A stretch of 64,000 nt of DNA from a virus. Where the stretch lies: positions 1-64,000 of IMG/VR virus record IMGVR_UViG_3300035188_000399, one strand, 5' to 3'. The translations under genes were made by a program, and so were the position numbers. Shown here piece after piece: positions 1-5,900 of this stretch (its first letter is position 1; every line of letters starts with the position of its first letter). The notes under the pieces are model-generated. The model saw only the letters and a list, made by a program, of their open reading frames with translations. It searched no databases and was not told where the DNA came from.

Positions 1-109
1 TAATTCCCGCTCCCGGATGCACATAATTAAAGTATTTAATACCACCAATATCTTGACGCTCTCTTACCCAGAACGAATTTAATTTATTTATTGCTTTAAG
101 TTTTTTCAT
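1..109 (-). CDS. Hypothetical protein, truncated by window edge (MKKLKAINKLNSFW...)
   Basis: ATG at 109 with upstream AAGAGGA RBS; frame open to position 1. Confidence 0.55.
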   Translation of the reverse strand, partial: MKKLKAINKLNSFWVRERQDIGGIKYFNYVHPGAGI

Positions 110-133
110 TGTAAATTTCCTCTTGGATTAATT

Positions 134-190
134 AAACTGTTTCGGCATTATTGCCATCATCAGTACAAGTACAGCACTTGTAGACAGTCT
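134..190 (-). ncRNA. Type III hammerhead ribozyme
   Basis: Minus strand reads AGACUG-UC^UACAAGU-GCUGU-ACUUGUA-CUGAUGA-U-GGCA-AUAA-UGCC-GAAA-CAGUUU. It has the intact CUGAUGA/GAAA core, a GUC cleavage triplet and three paired stems. Confidence 0.88.
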
Positions 191-199
191 GAGCAGTTT

Positions 200-220
200 A
201 AAGACCTACTCAGGTCTTTT
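200..220. terminator. Hairpin, possible intrinsic terminator
   Basis: AAAGACCT-ACTC-AGGTCTTT directly after the stop of 222..521. Confidence 0.5.
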
Positions 221-221
221 A

Positions 222-521
222 TTAGGACGCCTCCAGCCGCGCCATGAACGCGTCAAGGTTTCCATAGAAATGGAAATTATTAGTAGAAAATACAAATAAT
301 CCTTCATTTGTAGTTAAATCATATCCATTTGTTTCTTTAAACAAATAAGATGACTCTTCTCTATCAGAAGTAGTAATGACTCCAAAACGAGTTCCTTCTG
401 GTGGCACTACTACTAAAATGTTAGCGCTTCCTCTTCTGCCTTCAAACACAGCACCTGTCGAAGAAGAGTAATCAACTAGGTTTAATTTTACTTCTAATCC
501 TGCAATAAATATGCAAATCAT
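222..521 (-). CDS. Hypothetical protein (early-type)
   Basis: 99-aa ORF with AAGAGGA RBS. Confidence 0.7.
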   Translation of the reverse strand: MICIFIAGLEVKLNLVDYSSSTGAVFEGRRGSANILVVVPPEGTRFGVITTSDREESSYLFKETNGYDLTTNEGLFVFSTNNFHFYGNLDAFMARLEAS

Positions 522-569
522 TTTATTTTCCTCTTGGAATGTTAATTAATTGAGGTACCTTATTGTACT

Positions 570-595
570 TCATATAAGATACCCCTTTTTCCGCA
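570..595 (-). promoter_or_regulatory. Conserved motif class II, TGCGG-N7-GGTATCTTATATGA (putative phage promoter), copy 1
   Basis: Identical 14-mer and 5-mer with an exact 7-nt spacer also at 1321-1346 and 54029-54054. Confidence 0.7.
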
Positions 596-625
596 AATAA
601 AAGGGATGCTCCGAAGAACATCCCT
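595..625 (-). terminator. Rho-independent terminator
   Basis: AGGGATG/CATCCCT stem with CUUCGG loop followed by a U-tract on the minus strand. Confidence 0.75.
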
Positions 626-629
626 GTTG

Positions 630-917
630 TTAAAGTACCAGTAATCCTGACTGGAATAAATGCCCTTCACATAGGACACTGAGCTTATAATCTTCCTCGT
701 TGATTAAATCGAGGATTAAAGCAAGGCTTTCAATCTTATCGCCACTCCACTCAACGCTGTTCCAACTGTATTGGACGTTCGCACCAATCTTAATTCGTGC
801 ATCTGCTCCTTCTAGCAGTGAAGAGTAGTTAAAATACTCTTCAGCGTCAACGGTGTCAAAATCCCAAGGGATTTGCGAATGTATAGAACTATCTAAAGTT
901 CTATTGATAATAAACAT
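630..917 (-). CDS. Hypothetical protein
   Basis: ORF; ATG at 917 overlaps the upstream stop. Confidence 0.65.
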   Translation of the reverse strand: MFIINRTLDSSIHSQIPWDFDTVDAEEYFNYSSLLEGADARIKIGANVQYSWNSVEWSGDKIESLALILDLINEEDYKLSVLCEGHLFQSGLLVL

Positions 918-1135
918 TACAGTCGAGTGCATTTTCTTCTCCGAATAGCGATTGAGGCACGTCTAACGTGTCTTGGTTTACCTTTCATTTCTTTTTCAAA
1001 TTCTTCATCTGACAGATTTTTAATGTATAGTTCTGAATCAGCATAGCCTGACTTATTAATCATAAGAGAAGAAATGCGATAGTCTAACCAGCCAAGATAA
1101 GCTTGCTTGTTACCAGCTCCGCCTCTAATACTCAT
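917..1135 (-). CDS. Hypothetical basic protein
   Basis: 72-aa ORF with AAGGAG RBS. Confidence 0.65.
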   Translation of the reverse strand: MSIRGGAGNKQAYLGWLDYRISSLMINKSGYADSELYIKNLSDEEFEKEMKGKPRHVRRASIAIRRRKCTRL

Positions 1136-1284
1136 TTCTTAGGCTCCTTTTTCAAAGCTGCTTCTAGAAAGAAGCTAAACGGAATTGCAGGTTTCTCACT
1201 GCTGATCCTATTTCTATTCCATCCATTCTTATAATGTTTATGGGCATTAAGATCAGTTTCTGCTGCTTTGATTACCTTTCTCAT
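1132..1284 (-). CDS. Small hypothetical protein (50 aa, MRKVIKAAETD...), not in ORF track
   Basis: AAGGAG RBS; ATGA overlap with the next gene. Confidence 0.6.
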   Translation of the reverse strand: MRKVIKAAETDLNAHKHYKNGWNRNRISSEKPAIPFSFFLEAALKKEPKK

Positions 1285-1320
1285 AGTGTTCTCCTTAGTT
1301 ATAATAATCGATATTGATTA

Positions 1321-1346
1321 TCATATAAGATACCATTATTTCCGCA
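1321..1346 (-). promoter_or_regulatory. Conserved motif class II, copy 2
   Basis: Plus strand TCATATAAGATACC-ATTATTT-CCGCA. Confidence 0.7.
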
Positions 1347-1428
1347 TATTCCCTTTAAGATTTTGATACTAAAGAATAACAGATAATGGACTACGTCCTA
1401 GGGGTTAATTGAGGGGGGGAACGTCTGA

Positions 1429-1445
1429 AGGGTTAATTCAACGGG
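1429..1445 (-). promoter_or_regulatory. Conserved motif class I variant (AGGGTTAATTCAACGGG)
   Basis: One mismatch to the core shared by five exact copies elsewhere. Confidence 0.6.
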
Positions 1446-1647
1446 TTCAGTGTCAAAATTTTCGCACGCACTGGCTCAGAGCCGCCCGTTCTGGCACCAG
1501 AAACTAGGGTACACGGCACGCGGCTGGCACGCTGATCCCTCAGTGATGCCCCGACACGCACGCGCCACACACGCCCAGATTTCACGCCCACCAAAATTCG
1601 TGCAGAAACTGCCCCTCTTGTCGCGGAAAATTTTGGCATCACCATCA

Positions 1648-2103
1648 TCAGGGATGCTCGTCCAAATGCCATGTAGCTACGTATCCGATCCTACTCCAGC
1701 CCTGTTTTTCGAGAATCCGTGTGAAAACGTTTTTCTCGTCTACATTGCTTCCGTTTGAAATAATACAGTTAATCTCTCTACGCTTTGCTTCTTCAATTAA
1801 TTCTTCATGAAGGAGTATTACAGCTTTGACAGCTTGAGTACCTGTTAAATCAGAAGCAAAGAAACATTGTTGTAGTACAGGATCTTTAATACACTCATTC
1901 TTTCTTATGTCAGCCAACAGCCATGCTCTTATTACACCATCTACTTCAGCAACTCTGAGGAAACCTCTAACACCAATTATTTGACGCATTGATCTTACAG
2001 ATGTATCATAATCTGCTCTTATTAATTCTGGTTGTGAAAACTTCATATAGATTTTAACACAATCATGTAATTCATCTTTATTTTTAATTTTTCGTATAAT
2101 CAT
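1648..2103 (-). CDS. Putative GNAT-fold acyltransferase-like protein
   Basis: MIIRK start, LRVAEVDGVIRAWL strand pair, ILEKQGW C-terminal motif. Confidence 0.5.
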   Translation of the reverse strand: MIIRKIKNKDELHDCVKIYMKFSQPELIRADYDTSVRSMRQIIGVRGFLRVAEVDGVIRAWLLADIRKNECIKDPVLQQCFFASDLTGTQAVKAVILLHEELIEEAKRREINCIISNGSNVDEKNVFTRILEKQGWSRIGYVATWHLDEHP

Positions 2104-2107
2104 ATAT

Positions 2108-2134
2108 AAAAAGGCCCCAACCGAAGTCAGGGCC
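2108..2134 (-). terminator. Rho-independent terminator after phoH
   Basis: GGCCC/GGGCC stem, CUUCGG loop, U-tract. Confidence 0.65.
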
Positions 2135-2143
2135 ATTCTCCTA

Positions 2144-2812
2144 TTATAAATAAGCTTTTACAATTTCTTTACAGATACCACTACGTACAATATCTTCGAC
2201 ATCAAACGTAACAATACCCACTTTATTAACACCATGCAATCTAGAAATAGCGTCAGCTAATCCAGACGCACCCTTAATATCTTTCTGTTGAATATCACCA
2301 TCGATAACTACTTTGGTGTTTTCTCCAATACGCGTTAAGAACATTTTCATTTGAGCAGGAGTACAATTTTGAGCTTCATCTAATAATATAAATGTATTTT
2401 CAAATGTACTACCTCTGATAAATGCCAATGGCCTTGCTTCAATTACTTTACGTTTAAATAAGTAATCTGTAAACGAATGACCTAGTCTTTTATTCAATAT
2501 ATCTTTTATTGGATCAATGTAGGGAGCATATTTTTCCTCTAACTCCCCAGGTAAGAATCCAAATGATTCACCAGCTTCTACTGCGGGTCTAGTCACAATT
2601 ATCTTTGATATTCGCTTGTTCTGAAGTAATTGTGCAGCATATGATAATGCTACATATGATTTACCTGTACCAGCAACTCCAACACCAAATGTGATTATAT
2701 TTGATTTAATAGAGTTGTAATATCGTTTTTGTGCATCAGTTAAAAGAGCTAACTCTTTTTCGCCAGTAGGTTCAATAATGTTTTCTTGAGTACGTCTAGG
2801 TTTTTTCGCCAT
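2144..2812 (-). CDS. phoH: PhoH-family ATPase
   Basis: GVAGTGKS Walker A, TRPAVEAGE, GFLPG, RGSTF, DEAQN, GDIQQKD. Confidence 0.95.
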   Translation of the reverse strand: MAKKPRRTQENIIEPTGEKELALLTDAQKRYYNSIKSNIITFGVGVAGTGKSYVALSYAAQLLQNKRISKIIVTRPAVEAGESFGFLPGELEEKYAPYIDPIKDILNKRLGHSFTDYLFKRKVIEARPLAFIRGSTFENTFILLDEAQNCTPAQMKMFLTRIGENTKVVIDGDIQQKDIKGASGLADAISRLHGVNKVGIVTFDVEDIVRSGICKEIVKAYL

Positions 2813-2813
2813 A

Positions 2814-2996
2814 TTATTCAGGATCCTTTGAAGTTACATGTCCACCGCCTAATATAGCAACAGACAATGCTAATATACCGTCCATTTGTTCTGGTGATAG
2901 TTCGACTATTTTAAAAGCACTTAATGATGCTAAAGTAGAAGATATAATACCAAACCATGTAGATGGCTCTTTTAATCGTGCAAATAAATAACTCAT
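2814..2996 (-). CDS. Small two-TM membrane protein, holin-like
   Basis: RLKEPSTW followed by two hydrophobic segments, 60 aa. Confidence 0.55.
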   Translation of the reverse strand: MSYLFARLKEPSTWFGIISSTLASLSAFKIVELSPEQMDGILALSVAILGGGHVTSKDPE

Positions 2997-5900
2997 AGTT
3001 TTCCTTTCAAGTTGTCTACTTCAGCTTTTAATTCATTAATAGCATTCACTAATAACGGAATTATTGAAGTATAGTCTAATTGTAAATAGTTTTCTTCATC
3101 TTCAAATACAGCTTCTGGTAACACTTCTTTAACTTGTTGTGCGATTAAACCGACATCATTTTTAATTGCAGTTTCATGCCGTTTGCTTAAATCGTTCCAA
3201 GTAAATGTATAACCTGTTAATGTACTAATTTTATCTAATGCATTTGGAATAGGTACAAGGTTATCTTTTAATCTTTCATCTGATGAAGTAACGTAACTTG
3301 CTGCAGTCATACTGCTATTTGTCTTCATAGAGCCAGTAGCATTTACCGCGTAAGTTGCATCTGCTAATGTTACCTCGTTATACGCGTCCCACCCAGGAAA
3401 GGATCCTGGAGGCCTATCTCTATATGATAAATATCTAAATAAACCTGCTGATGTAGACGTAGATAATGTCACATCAGTTCGTGCCATAAACTGGCCAATT
3501 ATAGGATAGCGAATTCTATAATCAATATAAGCGCCACAATCAAATCCAGATTCTTCCATTGCAAGATATGCACGTTTCATCTTAGTGGCATCTTTTATAG
3601 ATGATAGAAATAATGCACCATAACCGGTATCAACTGTTCCTACAGAATTTGCACGCATACGCCCTATAGCACCAAATAATCGAGGATTATTATTTGCGTC
3701 TGAGTCTGTAGTCGTTGCTTGGAAACCTGTTGATGTATAATTAGCACCGCGTCCTGTCAAACTTCCAGGCATTTCAGCATTAAATGCGGTAGATGCCGAA
3801 TTAGCTTGTCCATAAGTTTGTGTATATCTTAAGTCGGCTCTGAAAATCTCTTCCGCAGATGTAGAACCATCATCACCCATTGTAGCTACTTGATTACCAC
3901 TTGCATCTAGGCATCTAAATTCGTGTTCATTGCTATCATTAATAGTAAGACGTCTACCTGTACTTGCAGATTTTAAATTTCCAGTTATTACAGTAATTGC
4001 ATCTAATGTACCTACTTTTAATAAACTAGGATATACTTCTGTCCACGTTATTGTTGTACCTCCTGCAACATAACTCCCATCACACTGAAATAAAATCTCT
4101 CCACTACCTAATGTAACATTTGCAGACGCTATTTTCCATCCTGTAGTGTATTCTGTTGTACTCGCTGCATAAGAAAGTCCTGTTGGTTTAGCAGGGTAAC
4201 TTGCCATTGTTCCAGCTTTATACACCACTAAAGAACCAGCACCATTAGGCCCTTGAACTGTTGAATCAGCACCTTTCGGTCCTGCAGGTACTATTGTAGT
4301 TGTATCCATATCAAGAAAATATGGATCTGTCCTGTATGGATGCCAATAGGCTTTTACCGCTACTGTACTGGCGCCTGATACCGTTACAGTTCGTGTAGTT
4401 GTTGCTGTAGCTTGGGCATCAGTCACTACTTCAGTTTCTACACCATCTATATAAACACGCCAATATGCAGAATATGCAGACTTACCACTATTGCCTACAG
4501 TCCTAAATGACGAAAATACAATAGTAGTTGGTGAATATGTTCCAGCTAAACTTTTTACTGTTGTAGGGGAGTTTGCAGAAACTTCATACAAAACAGCGTC
4601 TGTACCGTTGGCATAATCACCTTGTGGCCCCTGTAATTGTTTAGCTAATGAAAATACAGCATCAACGGTTAGATTTGTTGCAGTCTCAGTTGCAGTGATT
4701 TTAACACTACCTGTATTTGCAGCTATCGCAGTAACTGTTTGTGTTCTACTTGTAGTCGCTTCAGTACACGTCACATCAGTTTTAGTAACGCTAAATGTAC
4801 ATAAAGACGTAATCTCAGTACTACCTTTATATACACGCATTGTTGTAGTAGCAGTATTAAACGCCCCTGTTAACGGAGTACCTGCCGCATTACATGGAAT
4901 GCCTTGATACTGATTAGACAGGACTGCACTTAAGCCAGTATCACCTTTTTCACCCTTTATTAAAGCTGCAGTAGACCATGCACCATATGAACTAACGATA
5001 GTATTAGTAGCATCAAGTGTATTAACTTGAACACTCATCCAACGCGAATCAGATGCTCCTGTTAGTTTCCAATCAGTTGTATCAGCTGTAATATTTGTAG
5101 AAGGTAAAGCTGGTGCTGTAGCAGATGTTGAAGAACTAAATATATAGCGTATCTTACTACCTGGCCCTGTCTTTGAAATAGCTACAGGAGTAGTCCAATC
5201 GCCTTGGCCAACAGCATCGCTAGTAAATAACCTAGTTGTCATGTATAATTGAGACTCACCAGGAGGAATGCCATCACTCCATGTTACACCCGTAACAGCT
5301 ACAGCAGGACTGCCAACAGTAATTACGCCAGTTGCATTGGGTGCTGAAAAAGTACCATCTGTAGATGCTGGTGGGTTAGGAGCTGCAGTATGTCTACAAA
5401 AACTAATTCCTTTTACCTTGCCTTGACCTTTTTGACCATCTTTTGAAAGCACAACCGGAGTTGACCACTCGCTTGCAGCAATACTATCTGTAGTTTCTTT
5501 ACTATTTGCAATAGCTGTTGTAATATATAATGGATCATTTCCTGACGGAATAGTCTTTTGCCACCCGTTAGCCAATGCCTCGGTAGTTATAGAATTCGTT
5601 GTAAAATCATAAGTAACAATTCCAGGGTTGCTTGTTAAAACATCTACAGATCGTTGATAAGCAGGTACAATAGCGCTTCTAAAGCTTACAAAACCTGTCT
5701 CATATTTAACAGGTGTGGCCCATTCAGTTGCCAATATATCATCTATATCTGAAATCGAAATAACAGATGCCATTGTCATATATAATTGATCAGTACCTGT
5801 TGGAATGGATGTAGACCATCCATCTAAAGCACCTGCTAACGCTTTTGTAGAAAATGTGTATGATAATGTAGTAGAAGGCACACTAATAGTTGTAGCTGTA

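Follow-up and report, generated by a model that had tools for sequence, protein, structure and literature searches.

A probable type III hammerhead ribozyme set against a recurrent phage pseudoknot in the genome of a freshwater siphovirus-like phage

In phage T7, the early mRNA is cut by the host RNase III at double-stranded sites, leaving 5'-phosphate and 3'-OH ends. Hammerhead ribozymes are known from intergenic regions of phages and prophages, where several may flank one gene, and they cleave both in vitro and in E. coli (Perreault et al. 2011, PMC3088659); the proposal made for them in 2011 is that they cut long transcripts into gene-length mRNAs (PMC3088659). The HHphage ribozyme of haloviruses HF1/HF2 lies 13 nt before a start codon, and a 5' end has been mapped within three bases of its cut (PMC3088659). 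In the (+) hammerhead of CChMVd, trans-cleavage became 3-4 fold faster with a U placed between A9 and G10.1 (De la Pena and Flores 2001, as related in PMC3705267). Additionally, an intergenic candidate cis-regulatory motif of phages without assigned function, GP20-b (RF03003), has been described (Weinberg et al. 2017; PMC10690425).

The locus considered here belongs to the IMG/VR virus record IMGVR_UViG_3300035188_000399 (77.5 kb), the first 64 kb of which are the window, i.e. the whole stretch of DNA analysed. Its gene strand is the minus strand throughout, according to the ORF list of the window. Positions 190..134 of this strand very likely form an authentic type III hammerhead self-cleaving ribozyme, which is preceded by a small pseudoknot. 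The features of the region are the following:

1..109, minus strand: start of the downstream ORF (ATG at 109-107, GAGG at 122-119), which runs off the contig end
128..592, minus strand: accessory cassette of 465 nt, with a repeated bipartite motif, the 99-aa ORF, the pseudoknot and the hammerhead
134..190, minus strand: type III hammerhead ribozyme (sequence, RF00008, MFE fold, our own model R1, covariation)
190-184 with 140-134, minus strand: stem III, 7 pairs including A15.1-U16.1 and two G-U
183/182, minus strand: predicted self-cleavage site, between GUC and U (hammerhead consensus; C17 is C183)
182-176 with 170-164, minus strand: stem I, a hairpin of 7-8 bp with its loop at 175-171
163-157, minus strand: core CUGAUGA, all bases intact
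156, minus strand: extra U after A9, between A9 and G10.1
155-152 with 147-144, minus strand: stem II, a 4-bp hairpin with loop AUAA at 151-148
143-141, minus strand: GAA (G12-A13-A14), read from the sequence
191..217, minus strand: conserved motif with a predicted H-type pseudoknot fold, adjoining hammerhead stem III with zero linker
217-214 with 205-202, minus strand: pseudoknot P1, a 4-bp stem
213-206, minus strand: pseudoknot loop CUGAGUAG, eight bases, consensus CUGAGCAN
201-196, minus strand: pseudoknot linker L3, UUAAAC
195-191, minus strand: 3' strand of pseudoknot P2, UGCUC, able to pair with loop bases 211-207
222..521, minus strand: upstream 99-aa ORF, whose stop codon ends 4 nt before the pseudoknot
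602..625, minus strand: intrinsic-terminator-like hairpin (terminator scan), after a 100-aa ORF at 932..630

With the previously described phage hammerheads, the window ribozyme shares the core, the three-stem topology, the intergenic site between small genes and the proposed role; what sets it apart from them is the pseudoknot lying against stem III, the U inserted after A9, the single copy in this genome and the phage that carries it, which is siphovirus-like, comes from fresh water and encodes RNA polymerases of its own. Like HHphage, it lies a few bases upstream of a start codon, in what may be a polycistronic transcript of early type, but HHphage is a high-salt-dependent structural variant from an archaeal virus, whereas the window ribozyme is near canonical and its 5' end is hinted at by contig ends. 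The insertion of one nucleotide at the same core position is common to CChMVd (+) as it is portrayed in the source cited above; in that portrayal, the system is a viroid and its natural insert is an A, whereas here the insert is a U, in a phage DNA genome, and occurs in 3/22 modules.

The parallel with T7 had been drawn in an earlier note on this DNA and is reasonable by position, the ribozyme lying ~1.6 kb upstream of a T7-like RNA polymerase gene. In both cases the cuts, which are predicted ones in the window, lie between cistrons before a phage RNA polymerase gene and leave structured ends; unlike in T7, the RNA would here cut itself, giving a 5'-OH and a 2',3'-cyclic phosphate. Since intergenic hammerheads of phages have been known since 2011, the window ribozyme joins a known class, and the idea of an RNA-only counterpart of RNase III processing is a published working hypothesis, not a new one.

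The phage genome and the accessory cassette

The phage is siphovirus-like, with a genome of ~75-76 kb, and its capsid protein is 51% identical to that of EBPR siphovirus 1 and 39% to that of roseophage DSS3_VP1. Its sequence is present in many lake-water metagenomes and in some metatranscriptomes, while window 1-3000 gave zero megablast matches among GenBank phages. A 3892-aa ORF is followed by distal tail protein genes, a 2153-aa tail fibre gene and a PhoH-like gene, after which come small ORFs without assignment, followed by the ribozyme.

The contig is a circle over-run by the assembler, the overlap region being window 1-1968 against genome 75665-77545. Window 1-127 is 100% identical to genome 76062-76188, and self-comparison of the contig ends gives 85-86% identity for window 593-945 with genome 76191-76543 and for window 1110-1968 with genome 76690-77543. 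The exact overlap over 1-127, combined with 85-86% over the rest, indicates that two haplotypes of one region were assembled in series and that the true genome has ~76 kb. A plain end-to-end circular join yields a 143-aa chimeric ORF and was rejected, since relatives place the other end inside a different gene. With the correct closure, the ORF after the ribozyme has 89 aa (genome 76170..75901) and zero family matches, and a 538-aa ORF for a T7-like RNA polymerase follows ~1.6 kb downstream of the ribozyme, after a run of small ORFs. The 99-aa ORF on the other side has no PHROG or Pfam match and zero relatives in IMG/VR.

The second haplotype (from the other contig end) lacks exactly window 592..128, in such a way that the terminator-like hairpin at 602..625 is directly joined to the same ribosome-binding site; this cassette-less form is also found in an RNA-library contig of run X17, with a junction from 127 to 593. 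The cassette junctions lie at a shared TCCAAGAGGAAA ribosome-binding context, which suggests that the cassette may be exchanged by recombination at TCCAAGAGGAAA repeats. From close relatives, 13 loci were obtained through PhoH matches with an identity of at least 93%; 6 of them have a homologous hammerhead module, and in the other 7 it was not found within the fetched stretch. The cassette is not essential, because both a co-occurring haplotype and about half of the close relatives are without it.

The hairpin at 602..625 is the only terminator-like site that the terminator scan called in window 1-1500. The terminator-like hairpin which the earlier note had placed just upstream of the ribozyme was not called; it has no U-run and is in fact P1 of the pseudoknot. 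Regarding the bipartite motif of the cassette, its copies at 570-595 and 1321-1346 coincide with two peaks (window 551-600 and 1301-1350) at which contig depth is several-fold higher, in RNA and DNA runs alike; a third copy lies at genome 75,665-75,745. These peaks probably reflect the repeat copies and not expression.

The hammerhead and its homologues

The ribozyme is intergenic, 40 nt after a stop codon and 24 nt before the ATG of the next gene (the earlier note had counted about 25). That note had also read the minus strand as a type III hammerhead with one extra U and a predicted cut at 183/182, and the elements of this reading are all present at the positions given. A cmscan of window 100-260 (161 nt) matched Hammerhead_3 (RF00008) over model positions 1-54 of 54, with 35.8 bits and an E-value of 1.3e-6 (~5e-4 when rescaled to the 64-kb window), so that the Rfam hammerhead model does recognise the element at full length; the score is below the RF00008 gathering score of 48.5 bits, as are those of all the homologues, this score being a calibration cut-off and no structural feature. 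The MFE fold of 65 nt (192-128) is identical to the hammerhead fold (z = -2.3), which is confirmed also by the structure line of cmscan, with stems I and II loop-closed and stem III open. A15.1-U16.1 corresponds to A140-U184, base 17 is C183 (i.e. not a G) and G10.1-C11.1 is G155-C144, but U156 is inserted between A9 and G10.1; apart from this interrupted A9-G10.1 junction, the core and helix features of the hammerhead class are all present.

Whole-window Rfam scans (at gathering and at E-value thresholds) and an RF00008 search of the phage genome missed the ribozyme. We attribute these misses to the speed filters, because R1, a covariance model built from the homologues, gives it 73.1 bits. 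With the same model, a second copy was not found in the 77.5-kb genome.

Beyond the PhoH-linked loci, a pattern scan gave ~20 further distinct modules in IMG/VR and in metagenome contigs, some of them from TARA Oceans, while the exact 25-mer of the ribozyme is absent from IMG/VR. RF00008 recognises 12 homologues with 31-45 bits, and R1 matches 32 sites in the 329 kb of loci fetched, which reduce to 28 distinct sequences. When the 28 are aligned, 94.7% of the pairing cells do pair, compared with 67.3% in shuffled alignments and with 31-45% after shifting the partner columns; 16 of the 19 stem pairs are changed on both sides, and the doubly changed cells number 122 against 36 +/- 5, a count reached by 0/500 shuffles. 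The R1 alignment is fitted to the model, which biases these pair counts upward somewhat; nevertheless, the same covariation pattern is obtained from 22 modules parsed by hand from the core outwards, independently of R1. In these 22, stem I has 3-6 pair types at each position, stem II is variable save for the invariant G10.1-C11.1 and stem III is variable save for A15.1-U16.1 (22/22). The cleavage triplet among the homologues is GUC, GUA or GUU, all of them permitted.

Conservation of the core in related phages, to which the earlier note had tied its reading, is also observed: the core is invariant in the 22 pattern-derived modules, with stems that compensate, and core variants occur among the hammerheads found later by the model. 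Three of the 22, i.e. the window copy and two homologues, have the extra U after A9. The hammerhead is therefore more than a chance resemblance, given that related contigs keep the core while all three stems change compensatorily. Loop 2 is A-rich (AUAA, UAAA, AAAA) and loop 1 is conserved in close relatives, features which may hint at a tertiary contact between loops 1 and 2 of the kind that gives fast cleavage at physiological Mg2+.

Several other elements were encountered in these searches. At L141:5235-5292 there is a hammerhead-like element with core CCGAUGA (U4 changed to C) and without an upstream helix, which may be an inactive or slow variant. Five matches to the combined pattern (L146, L148, L155, L161 and L162) contain neither structure and were excluded, and the matches of a 14-mer scan were discarded as mostly due to chance, lying inside genes. 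Some marine contigs carry arrays of type III hammerheads (L151:626-2334, L153:1756-3405 and L140:919-1735); L151 has four of them within 3.7 kb, and L153 has three. Each hammerhead of these marine arrays lies just before a small gene, and single genes would in this way be bracketed by ribozymes.

The pseudoknot and its association with hammerheads

In the pseudoknot, the usual loop partner of P2 is GAGCA, and the window has GAGUA, which gives one G-U pair. Over 54 distinct copies aligned, 96.7% of the cells pair, covariation is seen in 3 of the 4 P1 pairs, and the P2 pair that was left free by the search patterns is G-C in 35 copies, A-U in 10, G-U in 7 and something else in 2. Contigs have 1-3 copies each; in the genome of this phage, the second one is at 69,943-69,972, minus strand (L001:5943-5972), before an ORF for a SleB-like hydrolase. 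The pseudoknot starts 3-14 nt past a stop codon in ~45 of 60 copies. Its end is separated from the next start codon by 16-50 nt, a distance that grows to 75-83 nt where a hammerhead stands between. The upstream genes of the copies do not belong to any single family, being unrelated to each other, and the same holds for the downstream genes.

A BLAST search with a 31-mer against cultured phages gave unannotated intergenic matches in the crAss-like phages cr7_1 and cr124_1, in the Arthrobacter Amigo group, in the Bacillus Page group, in Lactobacillus phages Lj771 and KC5a, in Staphylococcus phage StB12, in Lentibacter phages ICBM1-3 and in roseophage SIO1; matches in Synechococcus and Bacteroides fragilis phages were discounted, being short and inside coding regions. 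In the six cultured-phage copies inspected, the motif is present and its stems covary. The pseudoknot thus recurs with almost unchanged letters in phages of Bacillota, Actinomycetota and Pseudomonadota as well as in crAss-like phages. When the whole module was compared with cultured phages by BLAST, the pseudoknot part alone matched. Neither the cross-phylum pseudoknot as an element of its own nor its fusion to hammerheads was found described in the literature searched.

The surroundings of individual copies are varied. In Arthrobacter phage Amigo the pseudoknot ends 2 nt before a tRNA-Gly, and at L064:253-764 (minus strand) a tRNA array has the order tRNA-Thr, pseudoknot, tRNA-Ala, pseudoknot, tRNA-Ser, an interleaving from which tRNA processing would release the pseudoknots as small RNAs. 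In Lj771 and StB12 it lies between a MuF-type minor head gene and a scaffold gene. In cr7_1, a degenerate pseudoknot-like copy (L172:650-690) is located ~40 nt upstream of a clear copy, before a DNA primase gene.

Concerning the nature of the element, we considered a promoter for a virion or T7-like RNA polymerase and rejected it, given the 1-3 copies per contig and a covariation of the RNA type, tolerant of G-U; additionally, a PF00940 match was obtained in 0/5 other motif-bearing contigs, although control genomes gave none either, and the pseudoknot thus seems to occur independently of a phage RNA polymerase. We also rejected a reading as an HDV-like or pistol ribozyme, with a topology that does not fit when compared by hand and no such Rfam match. 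The closest described element is GP20-b. The Lj771 pseudoknot, together with the hairpin that follows it, matches GP20-b from end to end with 20.5 bits, against a cut-off of 36.2, and P2 of the pseudoknot corresponds to the first consensus hairpin of GP20-b, in the same segment order. In contrast, window 100-260 has no GP20-b match at E-values up to 10; it lacks the second hairpin, and what follows is the hammerhead and the 89-aa ORF, not a GP20 scaffold gene. At this sub-threshold level, the pseudoknot appears to resemble the 5' half of GP20-b.

The pseudoknot precedes 24 of the 28 distinct hammerheads, three others being preceded by a plain GC-rich hairpin and one by neither, and 18 of the first 22 modules analysed have no nucleotide between P2 and stem III. 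The raw association carries a bias, since the pattern used to fetch many of the loci contained both elements. In the eight hammerheads found afterwards by the model, the preceding element is the pseudoknot in four, a hairpin in three and neither in one. The hairpins of the second kind (L140:1736-1760, L151:940-965 and L151:2255-2278) consist of GGGAGC, a four-base loop and GCUCCC, or similar. Stem III often has 4 bp, and given that a flanking helix persists in the model-found set, a helix against its open end seems to belong to the design in this group.

Processing of the transcript and alternative readings

The evidence on expression comes from assembled contigs of public runs, not from reads. 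One metatranscriptome sample has RNA contigs covering 1-170 and 227-577, and a second run of this sample has 1-106 and 229-575; in another study, the RNA contig of a related strain stops at 169. The DNA contig is unbroken over 1-580. Random-primed libraries commonly fall short by about a dozen bases at the 5' end and by about forty at the 3' end. The predicted new 5' end is at 182, and the RNA contigs stop inside the ribozyme, at 170 and 169, which is a weak hint of cleavage in vivo.

In our reading, the ribozyme would most likely let a polycistronic phage mRNA process itself just ahead of a ribosome-binding site. The ribozyme would be transcribed within the polycistronic mRNA of the small-gene region that precedes the phage RNA polymerase gene, and the RNA would fold and cut itself after C183. 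Of the two products, the upstream one would be the mRNA of the 99-aa ORF, with the pseudoknot, eight further bases and a terminal 2',3'-cyclic phosphate at its 3' end. The downstream one would have a 5'-OH at U182, followed by the stem I hairpin, what remains of the ribozyme, the Shine-Dalgarno sequence and the 89-aa ORF, and the two cut mRNAs could have separate fates. The pseudoknot would most likely play a structural part, either clamping stem III through folding or stacking or capping the new 3' end.

It is also possible, albeit tentative, that the weight lies on the other product, i.e. that pseudoknot and hammerhead form one device for the 3' end of the upstream RNA and not for the downstream 5' end. 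The cut would then be made behind the pseudoknot, which would cap or mark the end or become a small RNA, and a tRNA cut by RNase P might substitute for the ribozyme. The arrangement of the elements agrees with this: the pseudoknot stands before 24/28 hammerheads, with stem III flush with P2 in 18/22, three more hammerheads have a plain hairpin in the same place, ~45/60 pseudoknots start 3-14 nt past the stop codon of unrelated genes, and in Amigo and L064 the pseudoknot is 2 nt before a tRNA-Gly or between tRNAs. However, most pseudoknot copies have neither ribozyme nor tRNA behind them, just 16-50 nt and then a start codon; the RNA contigs that cover the upstream gene break off at 227 and 229, short of the pseudoknot; and the search pattern itself accounts for part of the link between pseudoknot and hammerhead. 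With the same reserve, the pseudoknot may be a portable, self-sufficient module in phages of at least four phyla which, with a hammerhead or an RNase P-cut tRNA, could constitute a protein-independent unit for 3'-end processing.

Self-processing had been proposed in the earlier note together with a possible conformational switch, and the second part of that proposal is not supported. In the switch, AAACUG (199-194) would pair with CAGUUU (139-134) and hold the ribozyme off until a signal arrives. The six-base complementarity does exist in the window, and for a longer context of 126 nt the nested MFE (-29.1 kcal/mol) belongs to a non-hammerhead fold that pairs 217-214 with 185-182, which means that folding may compete in this copy. 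Nevertheless, AAACUG is the invariant L3/P2 segment of the pseudoknot, whereas the 3' strand of stem III varies among the homologues (CAGUUU, CAACUU, CAGCUU, CACUUA, CAGAAA, CAGAUU), leaving a complementarity of 3-5 of 6 there; with one partner constant and the other variable, the perfect pairing is limited to this window. The alternative fold, in turn, needs GUCU both in P1 and at the cleavage site, which is true in this copy only. With neither the competitor pairing nor the alternative fold conserved in the homologues, we regard switching as unlikely.

We also think it very unlikely that the pseudoknot is a sensor of a ligand or protein that gates the hammerhead, as in a natural allosteric hammerhead, and that on its own it regulates the downstream gene as supposed for GP20-b. 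Its loops and L3 are conserved near letter for letter across phyla, in the manner of small riboswitch aptamers, there is zero linker to stem III, and the architecture is common with the first half of GP20-b, but no ligand, conserved expression platform or pairing mutually exclusive with the ribozyme was found, and the downstream genes are mutually unrelated. That the element is an inactive relic or a chance look-alike of a hammerhead, as the sub-threshold Rfam score, the extra core nucleotide and the dispensable cassette might suggest, is hardly credible, with the essential core bases intact, three stems that covary over 28 sequences, an extra U that is tolerated elsewhere and RNA contigs that break at the site.

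We therefore keep the self-processing of a polycistronic mRNA as the most likely reading, and the locus has value for this question. The role of phage hammerheads has been unclear since their discovery in 2011, and the locus is unusually good test material: its ribozyme is close to canonical and stands 24 nt ahead of a start codon, forms with and without the cassette co-occur in the same lakes, and the locus is present in public metatranscriptomes. The pseudoknot may matter more than the ribozyme, since it is tiny and nearly identical in phage lineages that infect Gram-positive, Gram-negative and Bacteroidota hosts. This suggests that it is a general RNA punctuation of phages, which has been catalogued in part only, as half of GP20-b.
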